Positions 6,527 to 25,914 of a DNA stretch of 36,128 bases are shown piece after piece. Source of the stretch: a virus (Duplodnaviria; Heunggongvirae; Uroviricota; Caudoviricetes). Position 1 is the first letter of the stretch. Each line of letters begins with the position of its first letter. The position numbers were made by a program, and so were the translations under genes. The stretch covers positions 1 to 36,128 of the IMG/VR virus record IMGVR_UViG_2778261667_000013; one strand, given 5' to 3'. Under the pieces are notes generated by a model. The model made no database searches. It saw only the letters and a program-made list of their open reading frames with translations, and was not told the DNA's origin.

Positions 6527-6541
6527 GAGGGTGTTCAGCAC
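6527..6541 (-). promoter_or_regulatory. conserved motif GGGTGTTCAGCACCC-like, site 1 (between gp45-like and gp46-like genes)
   Basis: gagggtgttcagcac on the plus strand, ~40 nt upstream of the gp46-like start; coordinates approximate. Confidence 0.4.
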
Positions 6542-7195
6542 TTAATTAACCGGCGTGTCAGACATGCCGTGTGGGGTTGGGTGTTTGTGTGTTCCGATTT
6601 TAACGCCATTAATGGTGACGTCAACGGAGGTAAGCACACCACCTACATGGTTGATGTTGCCTTCAAAAGTGGCGGCGTATTCCTTGCCCCCACTGATGGC
6701 CATGCCACCGTTGCCGGTGATTTTACCTTCCACCGTCAGCTTATCGCTGGCCGTCAGTAACGGTGTCGTGAATGCGGCGTTCTCCTCTGCCTCAACCTCA
6801 TAGCGTTTGCATTTCACCCGGTAAACGTCACATTCTGTTTCAATAATCCGCCCGCGCTTCAGTACGATTTTTGCGCCTTCGTCGGTATACAGGGCCACCT
6901 CGCCGGGTTTCAGTTCCGTCAGGCGATATGCGCCGTGCTCTGTGGCCACGACGACGGTATGGGAGGTATTGCCGTTCAGCGGAACGGCAATACCCATTGA
7001 GCCGGGCGGCGGGGATGTGGTGAGGCCGTAATGCTGAAAATACTCCGCACCGTCCAGCTGTTCGCCTGCCAGCCCGTTCAACTGAAGCAACTGTACTTTG
7101 GTCGAACTGTCCACCGTACCGGTCACCACCCTGAATGCCTGGCGAACGGCGGACAGCGCCTGCTGTATGCGCTGATTAATCTTGTCCCACATCAT
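6542..7195 (-). CDS. baseplate assembly/spike protein (Mu Q / gp45-like, V-family)
   Basis: 217 aa; position between P-like and gp46-like genes; 4-nt overlap with upstream gene. Confidence 0.65.
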   Translation of the reverse strand: MMWDKINQRIQQALSAVRQAFRVVTGTVDSSTKVQLLQLNGLAGEQLDGAEYFQHYGLTTSPPPGSMGIAVPLNGNTSHTVVVATEHGAYRLTELKPGEVALYTDEGAKIVLKRGRIIETECDVYRVKCKRYEVEAEENAAFTTPLLTASDKLTVEGKITGNGGMAISGGKEYAATFEGNINHVGGVLTSVDVTINGVKIGTHKHPTPHGMSDTPVN

Positions 7196-8403
7196 TTCTC
7201 CCAGACCTTAACAATGGCGACCTCTTTTTTCTTTTTGCCCCTGCGGTGATGGCGTTTCTTCTCGCGCGGGAAGGCGTCAGGTATCCACACGCCGTCCTCC
7301 TTAAAGCGGAGCCGGGTTGTCTTCCCGTTACGGCCTCCGCTGAACTCACGCCCCATCAGGAAAAAGATGGCGTCGATGCCGTGGGGTTCGCTGACAATCC
7401 GCACACGCTGGCCGGGCTGCCACAGGACACCGTCCGCCGTGCGATGACCTGCAACCAGTGCGACGATATCCAGCCCCGACAGACGGGCATCACTCATCAT
7501 TTTTTTGGCGCGCCAGTTCACCTGCTCCAGGTTGCTGGTGTCACCCTGAGTGATAATCTGCGGGCGGTAATAATCCACGGTGGGGTCGGTGGCCACAGCT
7601 TTCATGTTATGAATGCCTGTCTGGCCATTGTCCGTATTACCGCCGTCCCGCCCGGATAATGTGCGCACGCTGCCGTCCTCGTTCCAGATATCCAGTGGCA
7701 CTGTGGCCAGCTGCTTTTTGCTGTCTGCGCGGCGGGCGTGGCTCTGTGCCAGCACTGTAAGTTCGGAGAAGCAGCCGTTAATGGACCGGGTATCATCCAG
7801 CTCCATCACGTTGTTCCCGGTGCCGTCCAGCTTCAGAATCAGCGTATCCACCGGCGTGGTGGTGTAGTCAGGGCCACCCACAACCAGCGTCCCGTCAGGC
7901 TCAAACCACGGCCATAAGCCGCGACCGGCGGCAGCTTTAGCCAGTGCATCCCACGCACGCATCCCCGGCTCTATAACGACCTTGTCATTACGTGACACAC
8001 CGGACGCCTGAATACGAATGCGCTGTATCCCCAGCGGTCTGACTATCCTGTCGATGACCTCGTCCAGTGTCAGCTGGTTGGCGCTGAACACCGGCGCGGC
8101 ACAGTCCACCAGAATGGCGGCATCATCACGCCCGGACAGCGTCAGCGTGCAGCTCTGACGGGATACACTGCGGCGCACGCTGTCCACGCGACCACTGAGC
8201 ACCGTTTCGTCTCCCACCTGCAACCGGACTGGCGCACCCCGGACGATATCCGCCGGGAACACCTTTTCAGGCAGTCCCAACTGAAGCTGCCAGCCGTCGG
8301 CAGCTTTCAGGAAATCACTGTCAATACGGTAACTGCTCCAGTCAGAATGCGACCTTCCGGCAATGACCAGACTGATTTTGTCGTCGTTATTTTGCGTAGG
8401 CAT
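7192..8403 (-). CDS. tail protein (Mu P / gp44-like)
   Basis: 403 aa; follows N-like gene with 17-nt overlap; synteny with Mu P. Confidence 0.6.
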   Translation of the reverse strand: MPTQNNDDKISLVIAGRSHSDWSSYRIDSDFLKAADGWQLQLGLPEKVFPADIVRGAPVRLQVGDETVLSGRVDSVRRSVSRQSCTLTLSGRDDAAILVDCAAPVFSANQLTLDEVIDRIVRPLGIQRIRIQASGVSRNDKVVIEPGMRAWDALAKAAAGRGLWPWFEPDGTLVVGGPDYTTTPVDTLILKLDGTGNNVMELDDTRSINGCFSELTVLAQSHARRADSKKQLATVPLDIWNEDGSVRTLSGRDGGNTDNGQTGIHNMKAVATDPTVDYYRPQIITQGDTSNLEQVNWRAKKMMSDARLSGLDIVALVAGHRTADGVLWQPGQRVRIVSEPHGIDAIFFLMGREFSGGRNGKTTRLRFKEDGVWIPDAFPREKKRHHRRGKKKKEVAIVKVWEK

Positions 8404-9736
8404 TAATCATCATCCCGGCGGTTATGTTGTTCGGGTCGCGCAGCTGCGGGTTCAGACGTTGCAGCTCTGCCGCACGGCTGTAATCGCCGTACCACTGCCA
8501 CGCCAGCAACAGCAGACAGCTGTCCGCCTGTACCTGTTTCTGCGTCAGCGGTGGGCGGCGTGAAAGCACCAGCAGGCCGACATCCTGCACGGATGCCGCC
8601 ACGTTCTTCATGCTCTGAATGATTTCCGGGTACATCAGCCCCAGCGGTGATGCGGTTTCGGTTATCCGTTCGCGTTCGCCTTCATAGCGTTCACGGAACA
8701 GCGTGATGGCGGCCTGTAAGCGGGTGCGCACATCCCCGACCAGTCGCCCGATATCCGCCGGTATAAGCTGTTCTGACTGGGCTTCATCGGACAGTATCGC
8801 CGTCGCCACGCTGGCCAGCTCTGAGGCCGCCAGAACCGCATAAGCCGCTTTCACGTCCTGTACGTCTTCCACGGACGCATCCGGCGGAAGTGCCACAGAC
8901 GGCGTTTTATCACCGCTGACCAGTGCGACCGGCAGCGCGACCAGCTCATCCATATCTGCCATCACCTCATTCCAGCAGGTCATCACTGTCGCAGAACTGG
9001 CGACGCTGTCTTCTCCGGTCAGTCCGGTCGTGGTGGCGGAATCAGTACGTTCCAGCACCGGCACCGCGTGCCCGACATCTGACGTGTGGATTTCCAGCAC
9101 CTCTGCCAGCCCGCCAATAAATTTCCCGGGTTCGCTGGCCAGCGACATCATATTGTCGATGGATGAGAGAAAATCGCTTTTGAACGTCAGCAGGGTATTT
9201 ACCAGTGTGGCGCGCACTGTCTGGATTTTTTTAATCACGCTGTTAATGGTCTTTAAAGGGGCTGTAACAGCGTCAAATAATTCGCTTAACTGTGCCAGTA
9301 ACTTATCCAGTTCTTCAAATAACTGCTGTGCAAACAACTCCGGTAACGGGGTGCTGAACAACGCGCTGCCGGTGCGGTTCTCCAGAAAACTCATGTCGAT
9401 GGTGCAGCTGTCCGGGCTTTCTGCGTCATGGCGGATGCTGTAGCCGGTCACAATCACCGACGGTACGGAGCCGTAAACCGGGTGAATCAGCTCACCATCG
9501 CCGCCTTCGTCCAGGGCGGCGATCAGCTTTTCAAGTTTATATTCGTAATACTCCCCCCACAGGAACGCCGTCATGCGGAACGGTCGCGCCTTGCGTCCGA
9601 GGTCGTGCAAATCCGCCCCGTCAACAAACGGGTATTCATAGACCGCATGGTCGCGGCTGATTTGTTCGTCCGTGTTCAGTACATCAAACTGCACGCCACG
9701 AAAGGAGGCGTTTTGCAGGTTTTCAGCCCAGCCCAT
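8387..9736 (-). CDS. DNA circularisation protein N-like tail protein (Mu gp43-like)
   Basis: 449 aa immediately downstream of tape measure (ATGA overlap at 9736); N-terminus MGWAENLQNASFRGVQFDVLNTDEQISRDHAVYEYPFVDGADLHDLGRKARPF typical of this family. Confidence 0.7.
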   Translation of the reverse strand: MGWAENLQNASFRGVQFDVLNTDEQISRDHAVYEYPFVDGADLHDLGRKARPFRMTAFLWGEYYEYKLEKLIAALDEGGDGELIHPVYGSVPSVIVTGYSIRHDAESPDSCTIDMSFLENRTGSALFSTPLPELFAQQLFEELDKLLAQLSELFDAVTAPLKTINSVIKKIQTVRATLVNTLLTFKSDFLSSIDNMMSLASEPGKFIGGLAEVLEIHTSDVGHAVPVLERTDSATTTGLTGEDSVASSATVMTCWNEVMADMDELVALPVALVSGDKTPSVALPPDASVEDVQDVKAAYAVLAASELASVATAILSDEAQSEQLIPADIGRLVGDVRTRLQAAITLFRERYEGERERITETASPLGLMYPEIIQSMKNVAASVQDVGLLVLSRRPPLTQKQVQADSCLLLLAWQWYGDYSRAAELQRLNPQLRDPNNITAGMMINAYAK

Positions 9737-12018
9737 CAGTAAGTTCCTCCCGTGCCTCTGTTGCCGTCCTGAAGGTTGTATTTGTTCACTGCCTCCGCCA
9801 CGACCTGACCATCGAGCACCAGTTGTGTGGTGAAATTAATGGGGCTGGCAGGTGGTCCCCAGTGCGTGAGGTATTCCGGCTGGGTGATGCGTCCGGGTTG
9901 CTTTGATGCTGTTTCAGACGCTGCCATTCCGGCTTGCTGTCGGACTTGTTCTGGTGTTGGCAGAGAATCACCGGCGATAACCCCGGTTTTTTTCAGTTCG
10001 TCAAGATACTGCTGGATCCATTTCTCGTTTTCTGTTGAGTAACCTTCGCCAAACTGCCACCACGGCTGATATTTTTCACGGGCAGCATCAATCAGCCACT
10101 GAGGATATTTAGTCCGTATATTTTTCCAGCGCTCCTCGCTTCCTTCGACGGCGGCGTCTTCTTCCGGGCTGGTTGCAGTGGCCAGTGCCGTAACGGTGCC
10201 ACCGAAAGAAAGCAGGCTACCGGCAATGCCGGGGAATTTAAATCCTTTGCCTTTTTTGACCGTGTTTTCAATTACATCACCGACAACCTCGCCAGCCTTG
10301 CCACCGGGTTTACCCCCGGTCAGGATTTTGATCCCGGCCCATGTCAGAGCCGCTGCGGTCATCGCTTCAATGGCTGTCGTGGCACCCACCACTGCTGTGG
10401 TCAGCCCCGGAAATTTTTCACCCGCCCAGCTTATGGCATCGGCCACAGTACCGGACGCATCAGCCAGCTTTTTCATGCTGTCCATTTGTGAAAATTCAAG
10501 CGTGTTTTTAGCCTGTTCGGTTTTAAAATCATTCGTGCCTGACATGAATTTAAAATCCAGATCTCCGGCGCGCTGACCTTCTGGCAGGGTGCGTTGCTGA
10601 CTGATTTCAGCTTCGACCTGCTTTCGGTATTCCGGGTTATTCCTGTAAGCCAGGATTGCCTTCAGTGCCTGCATATCACCGACAAGCTCACCAACACCGA
10701 ACCCCTCAAGAATTTTCGCCATAGACTCCAGAATTTTGTCCTGCTGGCCTTTGTCTTTTGTTGCTGCCAGGCGCTTCTGAAGCTCCTGATATTGTTTGTT
10801 GTTCGCGGCGACTTTATCAGCAAGGCGTGAAAATGCCTCTATCGGATCAATGCCGTTTTCCATAGCTCGGGTCAATGTACCGGGTAAATCAATACCCTTG
10901 CCATCAATCGTGATGCTTTTCGCCCTTGTTGCTGATTCACTACTGAAAAGTTTGGCCAACAGGTTTACAACGTTATTACCTGCCTCACTGCTGCTGCCTG
11001 CGGCAATACCTGCGACCTCATTAAATGCCAGTAATTTCTGGAATCCATCCAGTCCTTTCATTCCGGCGTTACCAGCTAACGCCATCTGAGGTCCAAGATG
11101 CTCCGCCATATCCCGTAGCTCAAAATTACCGGCTTTACCGGCTGCAATAGCCATATTAAACATGGCCGGAAGATCGTTGTCTGTCAGTCCAAATGTTTGC
11201 TTAGCTTTGGCCGCCATAGTGACCAGATCGCGTGGGGATGCACCGGATGCAGTAGCAAATTTCATAATCTGCGGTAAGAGATTATTCGCGGTATCCCAGG
11301 AAAAAGCGCCGCTGGCCAACATCTCATTCATTGCTTCAGCTGCATCCTCTTTCGTTCCGCCACCATACGTTACCGCCGCGCGGATACTGTTTTTCAGCTT
11401 TTCACGCCCAAACTGCCTGCCTTCCAGACCACCATCACTGAACGCCGTGTTCGCCATCATGCTGAGCTGACGTTCATAACTCATTTGATTTCTGACTGGT
11501 TGCGTCATAATGGCGGCCCCTGCCATAATTCCGCCGCCTATTGTCACGGCATTCCCGCCAAATGCAGCCGCACGGGCAAAACGCCCCCGTTCAGGGATAA
11601 CAGGCGTTTTCGCCATCTTCATCTGAGCCTGAGTGACGCCATCCAGTTCACGCTTGAGTGCCCGGGCTTTTTCCCGGGTGGCCTGCATGGCGCGCTCCTG
11701 CTCCTGCGCAGATTCAAAACCGGCGCGGGCCAGACGGTTATAGCTGGCAACCGTCTGATAAATTTCACGCCGGATTTCACGTTCTGCACGAATACCGAGC
11801 GTTTCCCGGGCACGGGCGGCACGCTGTATCTCTTTTGCCGCCTTTTTCGTGCTGTTAACGCTTTCCTGCTCGGTACGCTTCTGCTCTGCGCCTGCCTTCC
11901 GTGTCGCCTTTGTTACACCTTCGGTGGCTTTGATAACCTGTTTTTGTCCCTTTTCCAGAACCTGCGAGGCTTCGTCCTTCGCAGTCAGGGTCATGCCAAC
12001 TTTGAAATTACCGGCCAT
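9736..12018 (-). CDS. tail tape measure protein
   Basis: 760 aa, Ala/Gly-rich with predicted long helical regions and hydrophobic Gly-rich central segments; located between tail chaperone and N-like gene. Confidence 0.8.
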   Translation of the reverse strand: MAGNFKVGMTLTAKDEASQVLEKGQKQVIKATEGVTKATRKAGAEQKRTEQESVNSTKKAAKEIQRAARARETLGIRAEREIRREIYQTVASYNRLARAGFESAQEQERAMQATREKARALKRELDGVTQAQMKMAKTPVIPERGRFARAAAFGGNAVTIGGGIMAGAAIMTQPVRNQMSYERQLSMMANTAFSDGGLEGRQFGREKLKNSIRAAVTYGGGTKEDAAEAMNEMLASGAFSWDTANNLLPQIMKFATASGASPRDLVTMAAKAKQTFGLTDNDLPAMFNMAIAAGKAGNFELRDMAEHLGPQMALAGNAGMKGLDGFQKLLAFNEVAGIAAGSSSEAGNNVVNLLAKLFSSESATRAKSITIDGKGIDLPGTLTRAMENGIDPIEAFSRLADKVAANNKQYQELQKRLAATKDKGQQDKILESMAKILEGFGVGELVGDMQALKAILAYRNNPEYRKQVEAEISQQRTLPEGQRAGDLDFKFMSGTNDFKTEQAKNTLEFSQMDSMKKLADASGTVADAISWAGEKFPGLTTAVVGATTAIEAMTAAALTWAGIKILTGGKPGGKAGEVVGDVIENTVKKGKGFKFPGIAGSLLSFGGTVTALATATSPEEDAAVEGSEERWKNIRTKYPQWLIDAAREKYQPWWQFGEGYSTENEKWIQQYLDELKKTGVIAGDSLPTPEQVRQQAGMAASETASKQPGRITQPEYLTHWGPPASPINFTTQLVLDGQVVAEAVNKYNLQDGNRGTGGTY

Positions 12019-12177
12019 TTTTCTGCTTACCTTTTCTGCGTTTCTTTCTGAGGGATTTAAATGACTGGCGGGTGGTCTGTGAGGTGTCCTTCCTTCCTGA
12101 GCCGCCGTTCAGCCTGTCAACGGCGGCAAGCCAGCCGTCCAGCTCGGGACGGCTCATGGTCATGATTTGCTCTTCGG

Positions 12178-12561
12178 TTATTCCGTAGCGCCCGAGGATG
12201 AGGACTGCGAGCCGGAGTCCGGCGAGCCGGGATTCCCGCCGTTCCGCTTTACCTTCAGGACGTTGCGTGATGCCAGCAGAATATTAAAATCGTCCGGCGT
12301 CATGTTGTCGTGTAACAGCTCCGCCGTCAGTTCTTCCTGCGGAATATCCCCCAGACGGACCAGCGTTGCCGCCATCACCGCACAGCGGAAGTAATAATCC
12401 GCCGCGAAGCCATCCACCGTCTGAAAGCGTTCTTCAGTTTCTTCCAGTGCCTGCCCGTTATCACGCATGACCGGCAGACGCAGCTCAAAGTTTTTATGAA
12501 CGGTGCCGTTAAACACCACGCCATCAGACAGTTCGCCAGTCTGTGTATTAATCAAAGTCAT
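12178..12561 (-). CDS. tail assembly chaperone (Mu gp41-like)
   Basis: 127 aa acidic ORF between tail tube and tape measure genes, the canonical chaperone position; Ser/Gly-rich C-terminus; overlapping -1 frame is open (see findings). Confidence 0.5.
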   Translation of the reverse strand: MTLINTQTGELSDGVVFNGTVHKNFELRLPVMRDNGQALEETEERFQTVDGFAADYYFRCAVMAATLVRLGDIPQEELTAELLHDNMTPDDFNILLASRNVLKVKRNGGNPGSPDSGSQSSSSGATE

Positions 12562-12932
12562 CCTGTCACCTTCCTGAGTGCAGCCAGTTTGATATCAATT
12601 TTCGCTTCATTATCGACGGTGTATTTCTCACCCACTTCGGTTGTGAAGCAGTCCAGATAGGAGGTGCGTTTGCCGCTTTTACTGAGCGGATACAACGAGA
12701 TTTTCACACCTTCAAGGTTTTCCCAGTCCGGCTCGTTGGTATCAGGGATCACCGCCGAAACGGACAGTTCGTAGGTGCCAATGCCCCGGGCAAAGCCTTT
12801 GGCCCTGCCGGTTTTGTTCATGGTCTTGACCAGTTTTCGCCCGGTGTTGATCTGAACATCAAGGTCGGTGATCTCGATTTCCTGGCTGTCCACCTCCAGC
12901 ACAATCGAGCCAATGTATTCATGCAGAGACAT
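12558..12932 (-). CDS. tail tube protein (Mu M / gp40-like)
   Basis: 124 aa ORF immediately downstream of sheath gene; synteny. Confidence 0.6.
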   Translation of the reverse strand: MSLHEYIGSIVLEVDSQEIEITDLDVQINTGRKLVKTMNKTGRAKGFARGIGTYELSVSAVIPDTNEPDWENLEGVKISLYPLSKSGKRTSYLDCFTTEVGEKYTVDNEAKIDIKLAALRKVTG

Positions 12933-12944
12933 TTACCGCGCTCC

Positions 12945-14366
12945 TTACAAAATCATGTCGATGCGACCGGCAAACACATGCAGGCCGTTAACCACATCCG
13001 CCGGAACCACGCAGTCGAGACGGTTTGCATCTTTCCCGTTTCGCTGAACGCGCAGCTTTGCCTTGTTCGCTTCCACGTTCTCCAGAATCTCCGCTTCCTC
13101 CAGCTTGATCAGCACGTCATACAGTTCGCTTTCCACTTTGGCGATAGTGCGGGTGCTGAGTTTTTCGCGCGGGAAGCGAAGGCTGATGCGTTCGCGGCAC
13201 GCCTTGCGGGTGTAGTCCAGCGTTCTGATGGACGTGATATCCAGTAACGAGACGTCAGTCACGCCCTGTGCGTTAACCGTGTACGTACTGACCGCACGCA
13301 CAATCTGCACCGTGTTACCCGGGCCAACCTCAACCGGCGTCAGGCCGTTATGCAGGGCGTTTTCCTGCTCGTTACGGCTTTCACGCTGTGACATGGCGAC
13401 CACATCCAGCCCGGGCAGCGCCAGCGAGTTCAGCGGACGCGCCGGGTCTTCCTCGCCCGCCATCACAGCGCCGTAGATAGCGGCCAGCACCGCTGGCAGC
13501 TTCACGGAGCCGCGATACCAGGGGACGGACACGCGCCCGCTGTTCACACCGGCTGCCAGGGTGATCCCGTTTCCGAGACTGCCCGTCCAGCCCGCACAGC
13601 CAATCGCGCCGCGCTGTTCCATCGCGTTCCCGGTTTTCTCCAGATGCTGCTTCAGGGCCGCAAGGGCTGGCGCGGTACTGAACGGACAAATCAGAATGTT
13701 GTGACCGGCAGCAAAGACCGCATCCAGTGCAGGCTGAATATCCGGGTCCATTTCGCCGTTCGCCATCGGCGTGGTGCTCACGGTCAGACCGCCTGCCGTG
13801 GTGGACGCTGACAGGGTGATATCATTCCCCCAGGCCCCTTTGGTCCGGGTGGTCACCGTCAGCTGAGAGGCTTCCGATTTGTATTCCCCCGTGACCAGAA
13901 GCGATGGCGTCTGCGTCATTGCTTCCACCAGTGCCGGAATGATTTTCGACGGTTCATCACCGGTTTCCACATCCACCGTGACCTGCTCACCGGCAACCCA
14001 TACCGACAGCGTGCCGCTGCTGGTTGCCGTGCCACTGACGGTAACTGCGCCGGTTGCCGCCTTTCCTGCGCCACTGTCTGCAATACCGATAACATCCAGT
14101 TGCAGATAGCTGTTGGCATTAATGGCCGCGCGCGCCATTGCAGCGGCCAGCGAACCGGCCCCGAAATACAAATCCGCTTCGTCTTCGGAATACACGGAGA
14201 CGGCATTCAGGGGCGTGGCGGTGCCGCCTGACAGCATCGGACCAATCACCAGAACACGCTGTTCATTACCCGGCAGCGTGTTAACGGCCAGTCGGGTATT
14301 AAACTCAAAATGCACACCGGGCTTACGGATGCCGCCCGAAATGGTGTCAAACTGAATTTCACTCAT
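12945..14366 (-). CDS. contractile tail sheath protein (Mu L-like)
   Basis: 473 aa; size and sequence character of myovirus sheath proteins; followed by tube and chaperone genes. Confidence 0.85.
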   Translation of the reverse strand: MSEIQFDTISGGIRKPGVHFEFNTRLAVNTLPGNEQRVLVIGPMLSGGTATPLNAVSVYSEDEADLYFGAGSLAAAMARAAINANSYLQLDVIGIADSGAGKAATGAVTVSGTATSSGTLSVWVAGEQVTVDVETGDEPSKIIPALVEAMTQTPSLLVTGEYKSEASQLTVTTRTKGAWGNDITLSASTTAGGLTVSTTPMANGEMDPDIQPALDAVFAAGHNILICPFSTAPALAALKQHLEKTGNAMEQRGAIGCAGWTGSLGNGITLAAGVNSGRVSVPWYRGSVKLPAVLAAIYGAVMAGEEDPARPLNSLALPGLDVVAMSQRESRNEQENALHNGLTPVEVGPGNTVQIVRAVSTYTVNAQGVTDVSLLDITSIRTLDYTRKACRERISLRFPREKLSTRTIAKVESELYDVLIKLEEAEILENVEANKAKLRVQRNGKDANRLDCVVPADVVNGLHVFAGRIDMIL

Positions 14367-15163: not shown

Positions 15164-15216
15164 TTCACCCAGACCACAACGCAGACGCTCAACCAGCGCC
15201 CGTTCAATTTCAGTAA

Positions 15217-15648: not shown

Positions 15649-15651
15649 GGG

Positions 15652-15993: not shown

Positions 15994-15996
15994 GCA

Positions 15997-16905: not shown

Positions 16906-16915
16906 GTTTCGCTCC

Positions 16916-17311: not shown

Positions 17312-18436
17312 TTACTTGTCTCCTGCGTAACGGGCGACATCCTCTGGATCAACGCCCATCATTGAACAAATGGCGATATCGACATCGACGTCATCGCCGG
17401 TTTTAATCTGCGCCGGGGCCGGTGACGGCGTTTTGGGTGGTTTGCCGCCGGTCTGGGTGCTGCTGAGTGCGGCAAGCGGGGTGGTTTTATCCAGCCAGGT
17501 TTTAAAACCGTTGATATCGCGACGGGCGTAATCTTTCGCCCAGTCTTCCAGCGTCGGAAGCAGTCGCCCGTCAGACAGCGCCGCCTGAATCAGTGCCCCG
17601 GCTTCGGCTTCACCGGACTGTTGCGCCAGTACGGCATAACGTCCCTGAAGTTCTTCATATGCCGTCAGAGGGATATGCTTCGTCGGGTCATAGGCATTTG
17701 CTGACAGGCTGGCGATTTGCTCGTCTTTCTGATTCAGCAGGGCCAGCAGGCTGACGGATGCCGCCGCCGTTCCCTGACCGTTCGAAATCATGTCAACGAC
17801 CTTTTGCAGCTCGTTTTTGATATCTTCCGCCGTTGAGGTAACCGGGAGGTTAAGCATCCAGCGCAGGTCGGAAAGCAAATTGTTTAACAGTTCTTCATCC
17901 ACCGTTGTGGTCTCCGTTTCAGTTGACAGACTCGCCAGACGACTGGCCGCAGCCAGCATGACCGCGTCCATACCGTCCAGCGCCGGGGTATTGGTCAGCG
18001 CAGCATGTAACAGCTCCAGCACTTCGCCGCGCTTGTTGTAGGCAAAAACAGGGGAAATAAATTTGTACTCACCGGCGGCAATCATGGCCGCCGCGTTCTC
18101 CGTCCACTCCACACCGGTGGCATACAGGCCCACACCTTCACGCCATTCCACCTGGCTGAACCAGCCCGCCGCCGGGGCGGGCTTGCCGTTGTTTACGGCG
18201 CGCAGCGTCTGATGTTCGTAATCAATGACAAAAGGCGTGGTACGGGCTGCCACCTGTGCGACAAGCTGCGCGGCCAGTTCGGCAGTCAGCACCCATTTAC
18301 CGCTTTCGACTTCATCGGTATGTGGGCGACCATCCACCGCACTGAACTCGCCTGCCGGAAACAGCTGGATTTCGCTGTGGGTTGCTTTGGTGATTTCGAG
18401 GCTTAATGCCGCAATGTTCATCTTCATACGCGGCAT
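17312..18436 (-). CDS. head maturation protease / scaffold protein (Mu I-like)
   Basis: ORF 17312..18481 begins at a GTG inside a conserved intergenic motif; likely start is one of the ATGs at MPRMKM (18436/18427/18421); start uncertain. Confidence 0.75.
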   Translation of the reverse strand: MPRMKMNIAALSLEITKATHSEIQLFPAGEFSAVDGRPHTDEVESGKWVLTAELAAQLVAQVAARTTPFVIDYEHQTLRAVNNGKPAPAAGWFSQVEWREGVGLYATGVEWTENAAAMIAAGEYKFISPVFAYNKRGEVLELLHAALTNTPALDGMDAVMLAAASRLASLSTETETTTVDEELLNNLLSDLRWMLNLPVTSTAEDIKNELQKVVDMISNGQGTAAASVSLLALLNQKDEQIASLSANAYDPTKHIPLTAYEELQGRYAVLAQQSGEAEAGALIQAALSDGRLLPTLEDWAKDYARRDINGFKTWLDKTTPLAALSSTQTGGKPPKTPSPAPAQIKTGDDVDVDIAICSMMGVDPEDVARYAGDK

Positions 18437-18465
18437 GATGACGGAAGGGGAGCACGGGGTACTGT

Positions 18466-18483
18466 GGAGGGTGTTCAGCACCC
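18466..18483 (-). promoter_or_regulatory. conserved motif site 2 (G-I intergenic region, upstream of protease/scaffold gene)
   Basis: gggtactgtggagggtgttcagcaccct; shares ~27 of 30 positions with site 3. Confidence 0.45.
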
Positions 18484-18636
18484 TGCCATAACGCGAAAGG
18501 ATAAAAGGGGAAATAAAACCGTTTTTAAAACCCTTTTAAAAACGATTCTGACAGCATTTACGGGGTGCAGTGCTGTAATGCCTCATCCGTGAGGCGTTTA
18601 TGTTGTCACAGGCGATTACAGCGCGTTTGTGGCCAT

Positions 18637-19188
18637 TCAGTCAATCACCCGCGCAAAATAGCGGTTTGCGGTGTTCTCCAGCTCGTCGATGTCGTCCTGC
18701 ACAAGCTGAAGGAAGGGACGCGCGGGCATGTTGACTGTATACGCTCCGACCGTTGCGCTCTGCACAAAATTACTGTTGCGCTTTTTCACAAAACGGCTGC
18801 TGACGCTGCCGTTTTTGTACTGTTTAAAATACAGGTTCTGCGTCCGTGCCTGATGGCGTATTTCGCCGCCTTCGTTGTGGATACGGGCATAACGAACGTT
18901 TGTCCCGACCGTGGCCTCGTTATTGTTAACCGCAGAGCGGATACTGGCAGCCAGTCGCCCGGACTTCTGAAGGATTTGCCCGGGGCCGCGTCGCTTCGCA
19001 TAAGCCGGACTCCAGCCCATCCATTTCGGGCGCCCCTGTTGTTCAAAGTTAGTTTCAACCGCATCCAGCATGGAACCCGCAAGCGCCGTCATCAGGTCGC
19101 GCCGGTCCTTCACGGAACGAATCAGGTTACCCAGCGTGGTGTTATACGCGCTTAAATCAATCTTAATATCCAGTTTACCGTTGCTCAT
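18637..19188 (-). CDS. virion morphogenesis protein (Mu G-like)
   Basis: 183 aa; synteny between F and I; 4-nt overlap with F. Confidence 0.75.
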   Translation of the reverse strand: MSNGKLDIKIDLSAYNTTLGNLIRSVKDRRDLMTALAGSMLDAVETNFEQQGRPKWMGWSPAYAKRRGPGQILQKSGRLAASIRSAVNNNEATVGTNVRYARIHNEGGEIRHQARTQNLYFKQYKNGSVSSRFVKKRNSNFVQSATVGAYTVNMPARPFLQLVQDDIDELENTANRYFARVID

Positions 19189-20351
19189 GATGCCTCCGGG
19201 GTGTCCTGCATAACCCAGTCTGTCAGCGCGTCATCCTCAACCGTCGCCACTGACCAGCGGTCGCCCGACTGTAACGCATACCGCCACGCGTTGCCGTCCT
19301 GCGTGACATGCTCCGCCCGTTCGATGGTCTGCTGCATCAGCACATAGTCGGCGGCGGTCGGGGGCGTGTCTGCTGCACTGAGGCGCTTCATGACGTCAGC
19401 CGTAAGGTTTACCGTCTGCCGTGCAGCGCCCGTGGCAGCGACCTGTTCCGGTGACCGGATGGCCAGCGGATATCGCTGGCGTGCATCCAGTTCGCTGACG
19501 TTTGCCAGTCCCCGGGCAAAATCCGGCCCGGTCAGAGTGCCGGTGACATACTGGCGGGCACTGCGGTAATCATATTTTTCCAGTTCCGGCTGCCATGCCA
19601 CCCGACCGGGATTAAATCCGAAGCCCGGGTCGGCGGTATACACGGAACCGTCCGGCATCTTCAGCCCCATTGTTCTGATGGTCTGGCCCGGCTGGCCATA
19701 TTCCTGCTCAACCTCAGCCAGTCGCCCCTCGCTGCTCTGTACCGTCAGGCCATATTTCTCCACATCCGACGCCGAACGCGCCCGGATACGGCAGCGGCAT
19801 CCGTATCCGTCCGGCGCGTAGAAATACTCCCAGACCGGATCATCCGCCCGGGCGGTAAAACCGTTCAGGGCGGCGTGTTTCGGGCGTGTGTGAAGGTCCA
19901 TCACCGCCACGCGCTCAAAATAAGGCCGGTCAGCCACGTTCGCCATCTGCTGCTGATAACGTCCGGCGTTGTATGACGACTGAATATTGGTATCAAATAT
20001 CGTGCGCAACCGGCGCGGCGTCAGCTGTCTGCCGTGCAGTTCGCCGGTATCCTCGTCCACAATCAGTTTTTTACCCAGCCAGCCTTTTGATTCCAGCAGT
20101 GGTTCCAGTTGTGCAGCAAACTCCCGGAACGTCCCGCCGTCAGCCAGTGCAGCCGTCAGGCCATCACGGACATCCTTCAGAACATCCAGTTTCAGCACGC
20201 CCGCCACCGTGAACGCCCGGGCGTTGGCGATGTCCTTCACATCGTGCCAGCGGAAGCCAATAACGTACCCCTTGCTTTCGAAATACTTAATCGCTTCTTC
20301 CGGTTTCAGGGTGTACGCATAACCCAGGTCAACATCGTCAGTTGTCGGCAT
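19185..20351 (-). CDS. head morphogenesis / minor head protein (Mu F-like)
   Basis: 388 aa immediately downstream of portal gene with overlap; Mu F-like by size and order. Confidence 0.8.
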   Translation of the reverse strand: MPTTDDVDLGYAYTLKPEEAIKYFESKGYVIGFRWHDVKDIANARAFTVAGVLKLDVLKDVRDGLTAALADGGTFREFAAQLEPLLESKGWLGKKLIVDEDTGELHGRQLTPRRLRTIFDTNIQSSYNAGRYQQQMANVADRPYFERVAVMDLHTRPKHAALNGFTARADDPVWEYFYAPDGYGCRCRIRARSASDVEKYGLTVQSSEGRLAEVEQEYGQPGQTIRTMGLKMPDGSVYTADPGFGFNPGRVAWQPELEKYDYRSARQYVTGTLTGPDFARGLANVSELDARQRYPLAIRSPEQVAATGAARQTVNLTADVMKRLSAADTPPTAADYVLMQQTIERAEHVTQDGNAWRYALQSGDRWSVATVEDDALTDWVMQDTPEAS

Positions 20352-21933
20352 TCAGTCGCCCCCAGATATCCGCCACAAAGAATGCCTGTGTCAGCAACTG
20401 CCGCAGCGTGTCATCCGGCAGCTCCGGCCATGCTTCCGCCAGTACGTTCATGGCCTCGTCTGCATCCCGGCCTTCCTGTATGGCCTGCACCAGTGGGGCC
20501 ACCAGTTCGTTCATCCCCTGCGCGATGGCCTCTGCCGGAAGTTCTGCACGGTCGATGGCGCGCTGTGCCGGGTCGTCCTCCCCGTTGTCTTGCTGACTGA
20601 GCGCGGCAACATTCAGCCGCTCACGCAGCTGGCTGAGGCCCGCCTGCACAGGGAGACGCTGTGCCACCGGCACCAGTACCTCTTCGCCGTCTTTCGGGGT
20701 GGGGATGCCGGTTTTTTTGCGCACCCACGACGCCGGGATATCCTTCATTCCCACACTGTTGAGCAACACGTTGACGGCTTCTGCCACACCCTTAATGTCG
20801 GCTTCCTGCTGCACATCAAACACCAGTCGCGGAAGACGGCGTGGCGGGACATCCTGCCAGCCGTTCAGGCTGGCCATCATCTGTATCAGGCTGCTGAACA
20901 TGCCGGACAGCTGGCGCGCATCGGCAGCCAGAATGTCGTGCCGGACCTCGTTATGCACATTGCCCAGCGCGTTGGTGGAGGTTTTACCGTCGGCCTGGCT
21001 GGTCAGCGTACTGCCCAGAATCACTTTTGAGGTGGTACGCTCTGCCCATTCCACCATCGACATGAACGCCTCCGGCCCGCCGGACGCGGCCTCCTTGAAT
21101 TCAATCTCGTTACCCTGCGGCAGGGCTGCCACCGCTTCATGGCCCAGATTGACCAGGGCGTCAAGAATCCTGTCACGGTCCGCGTCACTGGTGCCCTGTG
21201 CATAGTAGGCAATGCGCGCCGGAAGGCCGTAAATCTCCAGAAACTCCGCCATATCACGCAGCGCAAAGTTTTTGAACAGATACGGCCAGACCAGTACGCG
21301 GAACAGACCGGATGACCCCAGGAACCCCGACCGGGCGTTGTAACGGTGAACCAGCCAGCCGAACGGCCACAGCGCGGAACCGTCTTTACCATCTTCCCCA
21401 CGATTGCCGTCATCCAGCCGGAGTTCGTCATTGTGTTCCGGCAGGGTAATGAACCAGTTATGCGGACGCAGCGTCACCGCATCCGGTAGCCACGTTTTAT
21501 CCACGAACGCCCAGCTGATTTCCTGACAGCTGAAGCCGTAACCGACACTGCTCATCCCGTTGAGGATGATGTCCTCCATGTCCGGGATACCGTGCAGCCA
21601 TTCATCCACGGCGGCGGCCAGCTCCTTTTCTGCCTTCGAGGCATTGCGGGGCGGCTCCACCGACCAGTCCAGCGTCAGCAACGCTTTTTTGCGCTTTTCC
21701 ATCTCGGCGAACAGATGGCCATCACGTTCTTCCATATCCGCAAACAGCATCGCCTGCGCCGGAAGATAACCGCGTTCGGCAGCTTCCAGAATGCGCGGCA
21801 GTTTTCTGATGTTCAGACCACGGGACGGGTGGTCGGGATAAATGCGCAGCCGTTCCGCCACTCTGACCGACTGCGTGGTTTTGAGTGCCTCACGTTTCAG
21901 CGGGCGTCCGTAAATATCAACAAGCTGTGCCAT
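20338..21933 (-). CDS. portal protein (Mu H-like)
   Basis: 531 aa directly downstream of terminase large subunit; Mu-type portal by size and synteny. Confidence 0.85.
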   Translation of the reverse strand: MAQLVDIYGRPLKREALKTTQSVRVAERLRIYPDHPSRGLNIRKLPRILEAAERGYLPAQAMLFADMEERDGHLFAEMEKRKKALLTLDWSVEPPRNASKAEKELAAAVDEWLHGIPDMEDIILNGMSSVGYGFSCQEISWAFVDKTWLPDAVTLRPHNWFITLPEHNDELRLDDGNRGEDGKDGSALWPFGWLVHRYNARSGFLGSSGLFRVLVWPYLFKNFALRDMAEFLEIYGLPARIAYYAQGTSDADRDRILDALVNLGHEAVAALPQGNEIEFKEAASGGPEAFMSMVEWAERTTSKVILGSTLTSQADGKTSTNALGNVHNEVRHDILAADARQLSGMFSSLIQMMASLNGWQDVPPRRLPRLVFDVQQEADIKGVAEAVNVLLNSVGMKDIPASWVRKKTGIPTPKDGEEVLVPVAQRLPVQAGLSQLRERLNVAALSQQDNGEDDPAQRAIDRAELPAEAIAQGMNELVAPLVQAIQEGRDADEAMNVLAEAWPELPDDTLRQLLTQAFFVADIWGRLNADN

Positions 21934-21936
21934 TAA

Positions 21937-23577
21937 TTACCATCCTCCTGAACCAAAACGCCCGCCACGGTCACGCCCGCTGCTGCGTGGGGTGTGAATC
22001 TGAAATTTTGCGCTGCGCGATACCGCCAGCGTCCACAGCATGTGCAGACAGTCCGGGCCATCATCGTGGTCGGCTTTGGGGTAGTGGCGCAGCTGGTCAA
22101 TCAGCGTCTGATGTGCCGGACTGATGCGGATCAGGCCGTTGGCCATATGCGGCTGAAGGGACTCAATACGCAGCGCCTTATCCTCCAGCGGGATGACCGG
22201 CAGCGCCGGAACCGGCACGCCCAGCGCCGCCGAACGCTCAACCAGCACGGTACGCAGAAACTCCTGAAACTGGACGGACTCAAACGACCAGCACAGGCAG
22301 TGGTATTCCCGCTGATACTTAATCACGTCTTCGATAAGTTTATTTGGCAGACGTCGGCGGATATCGGCTTCAACCACATCCAGAATGCCGGTAAAACGGT
22401 TAAAGCCCCCCACGAGAATGGCCGACGGGTCGCGGTTTTTATTCTTCTTCCCGAGGCTGGGGTCAACAGCGCCGTAGAACACCCATTCATCAAGACGGTT
22501 AACCCAGAACTTAATGCAGCCCGCAAACAGCGCGTCTTCACCGCTGACCGGGTCGTTCTGGTATTCAGAATCAAAGGTGTCGTGACCGTCACGGACACGG
22601 ATTTTCATCAGCGCCAGCAGGGGACGCGCCGCCCATGACACCACCGACCCGGCGAGCATGTCGGCTTCGTTCTGTCGGTAAAGTGCCTCCGCCGCTTCCG
22701 GCTGTTTGTTGCGGATGAGTTCTTCCCACTCGTCCCACAGTTTCATATTGGCAGGCCACTGAATGACGGCCTTAAAGCGGGCCGTTTTCCACATCGGGTT
22801 ATTGAGCGTGCGCGAGAGTACGGAGTCGTAATGCAGGATGGTCCCGATATAAATAATATCGGTTTTACCGCCAGCCTCGCCCAGCGGCATCACGGTTTTG
22901 GTGAGCCAGTCGTGCAGCTTGTCGCGCTGCTCCGGGTTACGCACCATCTCGTCGTTCTCGATGTCGTCGAGGATGACCAGGTCAGGACGGTACGGACCGT
23001 GGCGCAGACCACGCAGTTTTTTACCACTACCGGCAACGGTCACCTTGATATTGTTGGCCGTGACGATGGTCCCCATACGCCAGACGCGCCCCTGTCCGCA
23101 CACCTCCGGGAAATCGTTTTTTAAACGGGGGTTAAATTCCAGTTCAGCCTTGATGGCTTCCAGCATCGGATAAGCCTGGTCGATACTGTCCATAATGATG
23201 ACCGGATAATGCTTAATACCCCGGATAATGGTCCACAGGGTAAACAGCTGAGTCACCAGCGTGGATTTTGCTTCACCACGGGGCGCGGCGATGGCGTCGT
23301 TCTCCGGGTCCGGGCTTGCCACAACCTGTGGCAGACGGCTGAACAGGTATTTATGCAGCTCACTTTTTGCCGGGTTGCGGACGTAGTGCGGGAAATAGTT
23401 TTCGACAAAATAATCGTAGCCCGTCACCGGGTCGCAGACTGCCGCCCGGCGGGCCTGTGTGGCCTGCGGGTTAACATCGAACCCCAGACATTCAGCCTCA
23501 ATGGTCTGGCGGAGGTTGGCGATGTACTCCTGTAAGCTTTTCTGAAACTCTTTAATGGAAAGTTTACGTTTTGCCAC
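21937..23577 (-). CDS. terminase large subunit
   Basis: ORF 21937..23595; likely start GTG at 23577 with AGGTG RBS (MAKRKLSIKEFQ...); ~550 aa followed by portal is the canonical terminase position. Confidence 0.85.
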   Translation of the reverse strand: MAKRKLSIKEFQKSLQEYIANLRQTIEAECLGFDVNPQATQARRAAVCDPVTGYDYFVENYFPHYVRNPAKSELHKYLFSRLPQVVASPDPENDAIAAPRGEAKSTLVTQLFTLWTIIRGIKHYPVIIMDSIDQAYPMLEAIKAELEFNPRLKNDFPEVCGQGRVWRMGTIVTANNIKVTVAGSGKKLRGLRHGPYRPDLVILDDIENDEMVRNPEQRDKLHDWLTKTVMPLGEAGGKTDIIYIGTILHYDSVLSRTLNNPMWKTARFKAVIQWPANMKLWDEWEELIRNKQPEAAEALYRQNEADMLAGSVVSWAARPLLALMKIRVRDGHDTFDSEYQNDPVSGEDALFAGCIKFWVNRLDEWVFYGAVDPSLGKKNKNRDPSAILVGGFNRFTGILDVVEADIRRRLPNKLIEDVIKYQREYHCLCWSFESVQFQEFLRTVLVERSAALGVPVPALPVIPLEDKALRIESLQPHMANGLIRISPAHQTLIDQLRHYPKADHDDGPDCLHMLWTLAVSRSAKFQIHTPRSSGRDRGGRFGSGGW

Positions 23578-23629
23578 GTCACACCTGGTATACAAATATC
23601 AGACGGCCCGGAAAACCGGGCCGCTGTGG

Positions 23630-24130
23630 TTAACTGAAATTATCCTCAAGCTCTTTAGCGAAGCCTTCGAGCACCTCAAGAAACGGGGCATACTGTGCCG
23701 GGTGACGCTCCTTGATGAACGCGCCGAGCCGCTGCACCACTTCCAGTGCCGTGGCGAGCCGGTCGGTTTCCGGCAGGATTTTTTTACTGCTGGCCACCGC
23801 CTTACTGAGACTGTCAGACAGACTCGCCAGCAGTTCGACGGACTCCTGCGGCGGGATGTCCGGGTTCTGGTTCAGCCGTTCAAGCGTCGTCTGACACTTC
23901 ACCACCAGACTGATAAGCACGGTGCGGGCGACACTTTCCAGCCCGTCACCGGCGAGCGCGTGCGCGGCCCGCAGCTTGTCCCAGTCGTCGCCGTTCTTCA
24001 TCGCCTGCGTTTTCCAGCGCCGCGCTGTGTCGTGCGGCACGGCGTACTTCATGGCGACGATATCCAGCGGAAGCTGGTCAAAGATGTACCCGTTACGGAC
24101 TTTGTCCCTGATATCCTGTGACCACGCCAT
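23630..24130 (-). CDS. terminase small subunit candidate (Mu gp27-like)
   Basis: 166 aa immediately upstream of terminase large subunit; synteny. Confidence 0.6.
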   Translation of the reverse strand: MAWSQDIRDKVRNGYIFDQLPLDIVAMKYAVPHDTARRWKTQAMKNGDDWDKLRAAHALAGDGLESVARTVLISLVVKCQTTLERLNQNPDIPPQESVELLASLSDSLSKAVASSKKILPETDRLATALEVVQRLGAFIKERHPAQYAPFLEVLEGFAKELEDNFS

Positions 24131-24336
24131 TAAGTGTCCTTCTGAGCCTGTTCAATCAGGCATTTAACTTCGTCGGGATTTTCAAGAACATACACGTTTT
24201 TCCCGGTATCCAGCTCAATGATCGTGCCACCATATGCACCACACTGACGGTAAAAATGGGTGATGCGTTCAGCGACTACCATGACAGCGCTGGTGCTCCC
24301 TGAGCCTGCGCATTCTGTAAATCTGATAATGCTCAC
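24130..24336 (-). CDS. hypothetical protein (Mu gp26 position)
   Basis: 68 aa ORF, ATGA overlap with terminase small subunit start. Confidence 0.4.
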   Translation of the reverse strand: MSIIRFTECAGSGSTSAVMVVAERITHFYRQCGAYGGTIIELDTGKNVYVLENPDEVKCLIEQAQKDT

Positions 24337-24356
24337 TGTGTCAGACCTTCAAAAAA

Positions 24357-24542
24357 TCAGTTCTGTGATGAACACTGCCGGATGCCGTCAATAATCCGGC
24401 AGACCTGTGCCGCCGCGTCAAACAGCTGGCCCGCTCTGTTAATGTCCGTGCATCCCACCGGAAGCAACATCACCAGAAACAGGGCCAGAACACAGCGCGC
24501 GGCTTTACGTGGCGTTCTGTGTGTCCAGTGCTGACGCGTCAT
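24357..24542 (-). CDS. small lipoprotein, outer-membrane spanin (Rz1-like) candidate
   Basis: 61 aa; hydrophobic signal VLALFLVMLLPVGC with lipobox-like LPVG-C, ~30 aa mature part with 3 Cys; overlaps endolysin stop by 4 nt. Confidence 0.5.
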   Translation of the reverse strand: MTRQHWTHRTPRKAARCVLALFLVMLLPVGCTDINRAGQLFDAAAQVCRIIDGIRQCSSQN

Positions 24543-25084
24543 ACCGCCACGCGCTCCTTCAGCCAGCCATAAACAAACGATTCGTTAGCCTCGCGTTTCT
24601 CTGCCAGTTCCAGATAGCGGTCACCCTGCGTGCAGTTCAGGGCTGTCAGCATCACCCGTTCACCGTCCTGACCGCGATTATTCAGGAAGGCACGCAATGC
24701 ACTGATGGTACGAGGCCCGATGCGTCCGTCTGCGTCCATATCCGGGTACAGCCTGCCGCGCAGATTGAACACATTCAGCCAGCGCTGAAGCATTCTGGAC
24801 GCCACGGTTGGCCCCATATTCACACCGGTATCACACAACTCTGCGGCAATATCAGGGGATAATGCGGCGACCTGGTCAAATCGCGGGCCATACCAGTAAT
24901 CGGCTTCAAGGATGTCCAGCGCCTGTTCGCGGGTTAAATCGCGCATATCGCCACGGTATCCGTGGGCACGGGCGACTTTTTCCGTAATGCCCCATTTGGT
25001 CGGACCACCCTTATCATCCGGGTGATTGACGTAACCGCCTTCTTTGCCCAGGACTTCATCAAAAATTTTATCTTTTGATTTCAT
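24539..25084 (-). CDS. endolysin, GH108-type lysozyme with C-terminal peptidoglycan-binding domain
   Basis: 181 aa; N-terminal motif FDEVLGKEGGYVNHPDDKGGPTKWGIT characteristic of glycoside hydrolase family 108; no N-terminal transmembrane segment. Confidence 0.85.
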   Translation of the reverse strand: MKSKDKIFDEVLGKEGGYVNHPDDKGGPTKWGITEKVARAHGYRGDMRDLTREQALDILEADYWYGPRFDQVAALSPDIAAELCDTGVNMGPTVASRMLQRWLNVFNLRGRLYPDMDADGRIGPRTISALRAFLNNRGQDGERVMLTALNCTQGDRYLELAEKREANESFVYGWLKERVAV

Positions 25085-25370
25085 GTGGATGCCTCAGTAA
25101 CGAAAGGATTTTTGACAAATTCCCGTGCGCCCACACGATAAGCGCACAGAAAACCAGATTCAGCGCCACAACCAGCCAGCTGGAGTGCGTGTATGTACCG
25201 GACAGCCAGCGGAACGGGATGATGATGTAACCGAGCATCAGCCAGTACGCCAGCCAGGTAATCATCGGTTTATGCGCCGCACCGTGGCGGCGATACACAA
25301 ACAACCCCAGCACAATGGCGAGGCACAGCCAGACGTTCACGATACCGGCAAGGCTACTTTCCATTTCCAC
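25068..25370 (-). CDS. small membrane protein (holin/antiholin candidate)
   Basis: 100 aa with 2-3 predicted transmembrane helices; sits between holin-like gene and endolysin. Confidence 0.45.
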   Translation of the reverse strand: MEMESSLAGIVNVWLCLAIVLGLFVYRRHGAAHKPMITWLAYWLMLGYIIIPFRWLSGTYTHSSWLVVALNLVFCALIVWAHGNLSKILSLLRHPHEIKR

Positions 25371-25746
25371 CCCCTCCGCCGCGCAGTCTGGAAAACAGGC
25401 CGAACAGCGATGAAATTTCCTGTTGATAAAGAAAGGTCAGTATCTTGATGGATAACGCCGAGACACCGACCGCACACAATGCATCGAGCGGCTTGTCGTT
25501 GTAGTGGGTCAACCACTGCATCAGTGACGCAGCCACGCCAGCCCCCAGAACGCCAACCACAAACGCGACGAGCAGGTGAATAGCCATTCGCCATACCGGG
25601 ATTTCTTTCTGCTGCGTGACAACAAAAAGCGCCCCGGCAAACGCGCCCACCACGACCCCGAAATCGGTATTGGTGAGAAGGCCAAACACACTGGCACCAC
25701 CGATGGTGACTGCCACAGCTCCGCCGCCTGATAAGGGTTCAGACAT
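25354..25746 (-). CDS. holin-like membrane protein
   Basis: ORF 25354..25806 trimmed to ATG at 25746 (MSEPLSGGG...) with strong RBS CAGGAGAAACTC; 3-4 predicted TM helices; first gene of the lysis cassette. Confidence 0.55.
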   Translation of the reverse strand: MSEPLSGGGAVAVTIGGASVFGLLTNTDFGVVVGAFAGALFVVTQQKEIPVWRMAIHLLVAFVVGVLGAGVAASLMQWLTHYNDKPLDALCAVGVSALSIKILTFLYQQEISSLFGLFSRLRGGGGGNGK

Positions 25747-25885
25747 GAGTTTCTCCTGTAAATCTGAGCCACTGACGGCCCGTAAATAACACCCTGTCAA
25801 AGGCACAAAAGCCTTTTGCAGGGCGCTATCCCTTAAGGTGCCTTGTGGTCTGAGTGGACAGGGTAAACGGTCTGGTGTGGTGGGT

Positions 25886-25914
25886 ACTGCTGGGGGTGTT
25901 CAGCACCCCCAGCA
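25886..25914 (-). promoter_or_regulatory. conserved motif site 3 (upstream of lysis cassette), 12 bp perfect inverted repeat
   Basis: ctgctgggggtg-ttcag-cacccccagcag; ~140 nt upstream of the holin start. Confidence 0.45.

Follow-up and report, generated by a model that had tools for sequence, protein, structure and literature searches.

The window analysed here, a stretch of 36,128 nucleotides (nt) of viral DNA (IMG/VR record IMGVR_UViG_2778261667_000013), is a Mu-like prophage read in reverse, with all genes on the minus strand. A short sequence block recurs three times in its late region, and we consider it very likely that each copy serves as the upstream activator site of a separate sigma-70 late promoter that depends on an activator. 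The three promoters would head the lysis operon, the head operon starting with protease gene I, and the baseplate/tail-fibre operon starting with gp46. According to the mechanism proposed here, a single protein of the Mor/C family (encoded at 26249-26716) would bind the ~20-bp block at about positions -53 to -34 and recruit the host RNA polymerase, as the C protein of phage Mu does at Plys, PI, PP, and Pmom. All promoter positions given below assume that +1, the predicted transcription start, lies 7 nt after the -10 hexamer. An earlier note on this DNA, made from the letters of the sequence, had named an activator binding site at late promoters as one candidate role of the repeat. This role is now well supported by the 21-bp spacing between the block and an invariant A(-11)/T(-7) pair, by a dyad centred at -43.5, and by the fact that motif and activator helix change together.

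A block repeated three times in intergenic gaps

The 12-mer GGTGTTCAGCAC is present in exactly three copies in the window, all of them on the plus strand (at 6530, 18470, and 25895); on the gene strand the repeat reads GTGCTGAACACCC(T/C)C. By our own arithmetic, about 0.004 exact copies are expected by chance. When up to two mismatches were allowed, 14 matches were found, compared with a mean of 3.6 in shuffled sequences, and none of 100 shuffles reached 14. A weight matrix of 20 columns, built from the sites and applied to the window with a threshold of 14 bits, gave exactly three matches, all on the gene (minus) strand and none in antisense orientation. The count of three without a further copy, which the earlier note had made by eye, was thus borne out.

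As listed in Table 1, all three copies are located in non-coding gaps. The block at site 3, which holds the imperfect dyad TGAACACCCCCA as the proposed activator site, lies between a 95-aa open reading frame (ORF) and the holin gene and starts 19 nt past the stop codon of the ORF. Site 2 occupies the gap between G and protease gene I. The block at site 1 is found in the gap between gp45 and gp46, where it begins immediately behind the gp45 stop codon and stops 33 bp short of the gp46 ATG. The three contexts named previously (lysis cassette, protease gene I, baseplate genes) were correct. The order in which they had been given is the phage order, which is the reverse of the coordinate order because every gene is on the minus strand, and the longer strings had been slightly misplaced: site 2 spans 18457-18484, and the hairpin at site 3 spans 25887-25915.

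Table 1. Features of the three predicted late promoters and associated genes (window coordinates)
Feature	Coordinates	Strand	Details
Transposases A and B	35.8-32.9 kb	-	
Mor/C-family activator gene	26249..26716	-	Pfam Mor PF08765, 1.1e-6 (29.1 bits, cut-off 24.9)
Perfect 12-bp hairpin at site 3	25887..25915	-	CTGCTGGGGGTG CTGAA CACCCCCAGCAG; -25.7 kcal/mol, z -5.3
Site 3, conserved 20-bp block, predicted lysis promoter	25887..25906	-	GTGCTGAACACCCCCAGCAG; 19.3 bits; predicted -53 to -34
Site 3, predicted -10 hexamer	25860..25865	-	TACCCT; predicted start about 25851-25853
Holin gene (Phage_holin_8), first of lysis cassette	25354..25746	-	Pfam, PHROG
Site 2, conserved block, predicted gene I promoter	18462..18481	-	GTGCTGAACACCCTCCACAG; predicted -53 to -34
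Site 2, predicted -10 hexamer	18435..18440	-	CATCAT; predicted start 18428/18427
Protease/scaffold gene I	17312..18427	-	Pfam Mu-like_Pro, 1.5e-99
Site 1, conserved block, predicted baseplate promoter	6522..6541	-	GTGCTGAACACCCTCACCTG; weight matrix 23.9 bits
Palindrome over the gp46 start	6485..6509	-	CCATGCTGCC-AGACT-GGCGGCATGG; fold -26.2 kcal/mol, z -6.7
Site 1, predicted -10 hexamer	6495..6500	-	CAGACT; predicted +1 at 6488, the A of the gp46 ATG
gp46, baseplate wedge gene	6138..6488	-	Pfam GP46; same start annotated by NCBI; predicted leaderless

An invariant -10 signature at a fixed distance from the block

A profile was derived from 50 non-redundant sites of phages down to 68% capsid identity (pairwise less than 90% identical; 16 lysis sites, 16 gene I sites, and 18 baseplate sites), which were placed in an ungapped alignment running from the block as far as the downstream gene. 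The -10 region had no part in the selection of these sites. Information was high from -53 to about -33 (21 columns) and dropped in the spacer. Beyond the spacer stood two invariant columns separated by four bases, A(-11) in 50 of 50 sites and T(-7) in 50 of 50, and then C(-1) in 42 and A(+1) in 32 of the 50. A hexamer with invariant second A and sixth T, mostly of the form (T/C)ANNNT, stands at a fixed 21-bp distance from the 20-bp block; the hexamers across the sites include TACCCT, CATCAT, CAGACT, TATCGT, TAGTAT, CATTCT, and AATACT. Judged by its sequence, the invariant A(-11)/T(-7) pair is the signature of a sigma-70 -10 element.

The conserved block contains the dyad TGAAC-N-CC-Y-TCA at -49 to -38 with its centre at -43.5; the dyad is imperfect, and many relatives carry it in the perfect form TGAACCCCTTCA. 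The -35 region offers only a poor CTGATT or CAGTAC at -36 to -31, with at best three of six matches to TTGACA. In phage Mu, the C protein binds a 16-bp imperfect dyad centred at -43.5, Plys requires the region from -52 to -34, and the late promoters possess -10 hexamers and lack -35 hexamers (PMC2582627). The dyad was placed just upstream of a non-optimal -35 element in a cryo-electron microscopy preprint presenting structures of Mu complexes (10.1101/2025.05.02.651988), and the hexamer annotated for Mu Plys is TAGACT (AF083977). The centre of the dyad, the extent of the block or required region (about -52 to -34 in Mu), and a -10 element without -35 consensus are common to both systems, and the geometry is consequently that of a Mor/C-dependent promoter.

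Three other assignments were tried and rejected on spacing. If CTGAAC is taken for the -35 element and the proximal box (CTGATT, GATAAT, or CATTAT) for the -10 element, the spacing is 9 bp instead of 17 bp. For a sigma-54 promoter, GG and GC are 8 apart instead of 12, and for a promoter of the extracytoplasmic function (ECF) type, GAAC and TCTGA are 7 apart instead of 16.

A single Mor/C-family activator and its proposed pairing with the motif

The assignment of the 26249-26716 protein to the Mor/C family, already made in the earlier note, was confirmed by the Pfam match (Table 1), by PHROG 836 ('late transcriptional activator', 1.2e-42), and by an alignment with Mu Mor and C in which the linker GG..(F/L)YIPR and the C-terminal helix-turn-helix are recognizable. 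The gene comes after the GemA homologue, as mor does in Mu, and in all relatives that were checked it lies a short way upstream of the lysis site. No second Mor/C-family gene was detected among the 22 distinct proteins scanned, which included the early-region ORFs, and the NCBI annotation of the whole near-identical prophage of Escherichia coli E423 names only one. There is therefore no evidence for the Mor-then-C cascade by which Mu operates, and a single activator is proposed here.

The activators of the CCACTGAAC clade, which are ~40% identical, keep the second helix SDR(Y/F)(A/G)WQL, and the motif that goes with them is CTGAAC..CC.TCA. The activator of relative L186, whose capsid protein is 50% identical, is also ~40% identical and has the helix GNTRAWAIV. 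At the same three places (860, 8417, and 19961) L186 carries a different triple repeat, CCGCTTCACCCC, each copy being followed by TATCAC, TATCCT, or CATTCT. By these comparisons, the three-site layout is conserved while the sequence of the motif follows the recognition helix of the activator, which is what a matched binding site predicts.

It would also be conceivable, although we regard it as improbable, that the late promoters are real and the block is bound by another factor, either a phage protein such as the product of a small ORF or a host factor, or that it serves as a repressor site. A candidate is provided by a small ORF that most relatives carry in the stretch from the activator gene to the lysis site. 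This ORF is, however, poorly conserved (46% identity in the window's own clade), and in L186, where the motif begins 7 nt past the activator stop codon, no small ORF can fit despite the kept three-site layout. Furthermore, the type of motif follows the helix-turn-helix sequence of the activator, and by inspection no consensus for IHF, sigma-54, or an ECF sigma factor was seen at a workable spacing. Position and size of the block match the footprint of Mu C (PMC2582627).

Conservation of the three sites in relatives

Relatives were collected as 80 viral contigs anchored on the capsid protein, with 10 kb on each side and capsid identities ranging from 100% to 44%. In relatives with at least 90% capsid identity the exact core is kept, invariably in gene-strand orientation and confined to these three places, whereas more distant relatives carry at those places a related yet different triple repeat, such as TGCTGAACTCCC or CCACTGAACCCCTTCA. 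In all phages with at least 68% capsid identity, strong weight-matrix matches (at least 19 bits) occurred on the sense strand only and at the three conserved places only. A motif search across related Mu-like genomes had been suggested in the earlier note as a check, and down to this capsid identity it confines strong matches to the predicted promoters. The same three sites with the same spacing were present in the species-representative genomes of Kosakonia sacchari, Trabulsiella odontotermitis, Pectobacterium odoriferum, and several Symbiopectobacterium, a few of the Symbiopectobacterium copies being damaged. Prophage copies with ~96% identity were found in 55 of 5426 complete E. coli genomes. 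The clade of Mu-like prophages bearing this motif is widespread in the Enterobacterales (E. coli, Kosakonia, Trabulsiella, Pectobacterium, and Symbiopectobacterium).

A scan of viral contigs with the exact 15-mer returned the true relatives plus two other recurrent groups. The presence of the 15-mer in unrelated phage contigs speaks for a repeat that arose by chance or that is a generic intergenic repeat, similar to repetitive extragenic palindromic (REP) elements, without a phage-specific role. However, unrelated matches of about this number (roughly estimated, a few hundred) would arise by chance when a 15-mer is sought in a very large collection, and those found occur in other contexts. In addition, the number of near matches in the window was not reached by any shuffle, positions and strand are kept across dozens of relatives, and the spacing to A(-11) and T(-7) is fixed. 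The comparative data effectively refute chance or a generic repeat as the explanation.

One group, group B, comprises many metagenome contigs with GGGGGTGCTGAACACCCCC. Its genes run on the opposite strand, and read in that orientation the hairpin, located between a tail tube gene and the next ORF, is followed by TTTTGTTT; we took it for a terminator-like hairpin of no relation to the motif that matches by chance.

Three further occurrences were recorded as side observations. Firstly, two distant Mu-like prophages with 38% identical capsid proteins, those of Pectobacterium sp. B2J-2 and Erwinia tracheiphila (L301 at 1758 and L305 at 9922), carry the CCACTGAAC-type motif plus AATACT or AACACT directly upstream of the capsid gene, which suggests that the same activator/site pair may serve differently placed promoters. 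Secondly, weak extra weight-matrix matches (14.5-16.9 bits) were found on the sense strand at the same positions within each of two clades (~5763 in L141-L146; ~13531 in L158, L160, L165, L183, and L184); they may mark additional late promoters of lower strength or be due to chance. Thirdly, a lambda-like prophage with Nu1/gpA terminase (L066 at 2560-2700; also L003, L006, L008, L011, L026, L034, L062, and L072) has a homologous cassette of holin and GH108 endolysin, with AAGTGCTGAACACCCTCAAC 18 nt past the endolysin stop codon; TACGAT follows at the distance required of a -10 hexamer, and ~65 nt further on there is a strong terminator. The stretch containing AAGTGCTGAACACCCTCAAC was not conserved in named phages sharing the endolysin. 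It could be a chance match, a remnant of recombination, or a late promoter of the Mu type from which a short RNA is made.

The site 3 hairpin as a probable by-product of the flanking sequence

The repeat had previously been described as a hairpin motif, each copy showing dyad symmetry around a TTCAG loop. This description holds for site 3 only, where the stem comprises 12 bp. At site 2 the stem has 6 bp and folds no better than shuffled sequences (z -1.0), and at site 1 it has 3 bp (GTG/CAC; z -0.6). The 3' arm of the site 3 hairpin is the conserved block, the 5' arm is variable, and the hairpin is specific to this lineage. Among close relatives the stem at the lysis site measures 12, 7, 6, or 1 bp, with uncompensated changes in the 5' arm. 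Other clades keep the motif with a lysis-site stem of 0-1 bp, and no stem is present in the CCACTGAAC clades. Conservation of the stem with compensatory changes was not found for the motif hairpin among the relatives. At none of the three sites does a T-run follow the stem on either strand, and a terminator scan gave nothing at the motifs; in view of the missing U-tract, the motif hairpin is not an intrinsic terminator.

These data bear on the second candidate role in the earlier note, an RNA stem-loop acting in late transcripts by way of processing, stability, or antitermination, and they leave it with very little probability. In its favour are the stable fold at site 3 (Table 1), a single compensatory pair difference between sites 2 and 3 (G-C versus A-T), and the location of all motif copies on the transcribed strand. 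The conservation is one-sided, however, covering the 3' arm and the sequence beyond it, the stems at the other sites and in other clades are short or missing, and an Rfam search of the whole window returned no family match. Under the promoter model, moreover, the block lies upstream of +1 and would be transcribed by read-through only. The 12-bp stem at site 3 is best regarded as a side effect of the sequence that flanks the block in this lineage, and not as the functional unit.

Predicted leaderless starts and a palindrome over the gp46 start codon

With a transcription start 7 nt past the hexamer, the mRNAs of gp46 and gene I would be leaderless. The gp46 ATG coincides exactly with the predicted +1, and the ATG of gene I at 18427 is located at or 1 nt after the predicted +1 and has no Shine-Dalgarno sequence. 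The same gene I start is annotated by NCBI in the 96%-identical E. coli prophage; the GTG at 18481 that begins the longest ORF of gene I lies inside the motif and is probably an over-extension. When ribosome-binding complementarity was compared for the 47 annotated genes of the E. coli copy, gene I was weakest and gp46 second-weakest, tied with transposase A, which fits independently with leaderless mRNAs. In the case of the holin gene, the ATG at 25746, also the NCBI-annotated start in the 96%-identical prophage, is preceded by the Shine-Dalgarno sequence AGGAG and by a structured leader of ~105 nt counted from the predicted start.

A second and different hairpin covers the start of gp46. The loop of the palindrome at 6485-6509 (Table 1) contains the predicted -10 core and its 3' arm the gp46 start codon; the palindrome occurs at the same position in relatives L137-L172. 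In 23 distinct sites, 94% of cells in the pairing table were paired, compared with 23-50% in shifted registers, and compensatory changes were seen in several pairs, including a change of ATG to GTG accompanied by a change of CCAT to CCAC. G-T wobbles far outnumbered A-C mismatches (18 versus 4 by our own count from the table), which argues for pairing on the sense strand, either as RNA or as non-template DNA. As the 5' arm lies upstream of +1, the hairpin would form in read-through transcripts only. By reading of the sequences, many relatives are similar at their gene I sites, where a hairpin ends at or just before the AUG, and at the lysis site of the CCACTGAAC clade, +1 is positioned inside the 5' arm of a hairpin ending one or two bases before the ATG. 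The gene I site of the window shows a weak version of the start-codon hairpin (z -1.9).

We tentatively suggest, while considering it somewhat doubtful, that these late promoters tie translation to the transcription start, such that the first genes (holin, protease, baseplate wedge) would be translated from activator-initiated transcripts only. At the gp45/gp46 promoter, a start on the AUG would yield a leaderless mRNA, and the co-varying hairpin would bury the same AUG only in read-through RNA from upstream. Alternatively, with the -10 core in the loop, a hairpin of the non-template strand could aid promoter opening.

A known leaderless phage mRNA is that of lambda cI transcribed from PRM. 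It starts at the A of the AUG and has no Shine-Dalgarno sequence, a type of start that is predicted here as well. Unlike cI, the leaderless genes of the window would head late structural operons, and their AUG would be located within a conserved hairpin of read-through transcripts.

Weighing of the promoter assignment and comparison with other phages

Several points weigh against three late promoters under the control of a Mor/C-family activator. The -10 hexamers of the window (CAGACT, CATCAT, and TACCCT) are weak, and a simple scan for promoter consensus sequences detected nothing on the gene strand for sites 2 and 3, while its one match close to site 1, TTGACG/TAAAAT, is unrelated and lies within gp45; both results are expected of promoters that depend on an activator. 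The relatives share ancestry, so that 50 of 50 does not stand for as many independent events; simple inheritance, on the other hand, is hard to reconcile with a spacer that is so little conserved. The window's clade has an imperfect form of the dyad (TGA-N6-TCA, -TCC, or -CCA), and a second symmetry, GGGTG-N5-CACCC with its centre at about -48, could possibly be the one that is recognised. The activator of the window is distant from both Mu C and Mor (BLASTP E ~1e-4 to each). Finally, it is unusual in E. coli for a major structural operon to begin with a gene that is translated from a leaderless mRNA.

Apart from the promoter geometry, the prophage shares with Mu a Mor/C-family activator encoded just upstream of the lysis promoter and promoters that head the lysis and gene I operons. 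The earlier statement that two of the three positions match late promoters of Mu is supported for the equivalents of Plys and PI. The third site does not correspond to PP, which in Mu is annotated inside gene N, upstream of P (AF083977); here the third promoter is located two genes further on, between gp45 and gp46. An annotated ribosome-binding site follows all four Mu promoters (AF083977), whereas two of the starts predicted here fall on or near the start codon. The recognition sequences differ as well, that of Mu being CCATAACCCC at about -41 to -32 and that of the window containing CTGAAC at -50 to -45 in an unrelated register. A likeness between Mu CCATAACCCC and CTGAACCCC was discarded: relative to the -10 hexamers the two are offset by 9 bp (-41 to -32 in Mu, -50 to -42 here), and the resemblance was for this reason not used as evidence. 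A fourth site of the mom type was not found within the window.

The Mor-dependent promoter Pm of Mu has the site AGCCGG-TTAAT-CCGGCT, a GC-rich inverted repeat with a 5-bp centre that resembles GGGTG-CTGAA-CACCC of the window, and it illustrates that a Mor/C site can look like a hairpin. At Pm a T-run follows and the hairpin is annotated as the early terminator, whereas no T-run is present here and the inverted repeat is not conserved. In the late promoters of P2 and P4, a small phage activator, Ogr or Delta, binds a partial dyad upstream of several promoters lacking a -35 consensus. These proteins differ in belonging to the zinc-binding Ogr family, and their site, TGT-N12-ACA, is positioned at about -55.

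Gene order and further features of the window

Gene identities were obtained by Pfam and PHROG profile searches of the window proteins. Past the transposase genes, the order is GemA homologue, Mor/C-family gene, 95-aa ORF, two holin genes, and GH108 endolysin gene, followed by terminase, portal, F, G, protease I, capsid T, and the tail genes, which continue with tape measure, N, gp44, gp45, gp46, and gp47. No close relative of the phage was found in the GenBank phage collection. A keyword search of the literature gave no account of late promoters for this clade of Mu-like prophages, and a literature search with the motif strings returned unrelated primer sequences only.

Two additional elements were noticed in intergenic gaps. 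In the early region, two direct repeats of 64 nt (30198-30261 and 31273-31336; 83% identical) each hold a long hairpin, GGCGTAA...TTACGCC, beside an AT-rich stretch. Between G and gene I, at 18577-18598, a terminator-like hairpin, GCCTCA TCCG TGAGGC, is followed by GTTTATGTT. It is a terminator only when read on the plus strand, antisense to the genes, and an AT-rich stretch separates it from site 2.

Implications

The element is of a known kind, a late promoter of the Mor/C type. Its sole unusual part is the predicted leaderless starts together with a hairpin by which the start codon would be hidden in read-through RNA, possibly a new twist. If true, such gating would shield lysis and assembly against read-through of early or middle transcription. 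Read as late promoters, the three sites define a late-gene regulatory motif and a promoter layout for a clade of Mu-like prophages that is widespread in the Enterobacterales, and the motif with its fixed -10 spacing can serve, when such prophages are annotated, to mark late promoters and to revise start codons. As the layout is constant while the recognition sequence varies with the activator, the clade would offer a natural set of matched activator/site pairs for the specificity of Mor/C proteins.

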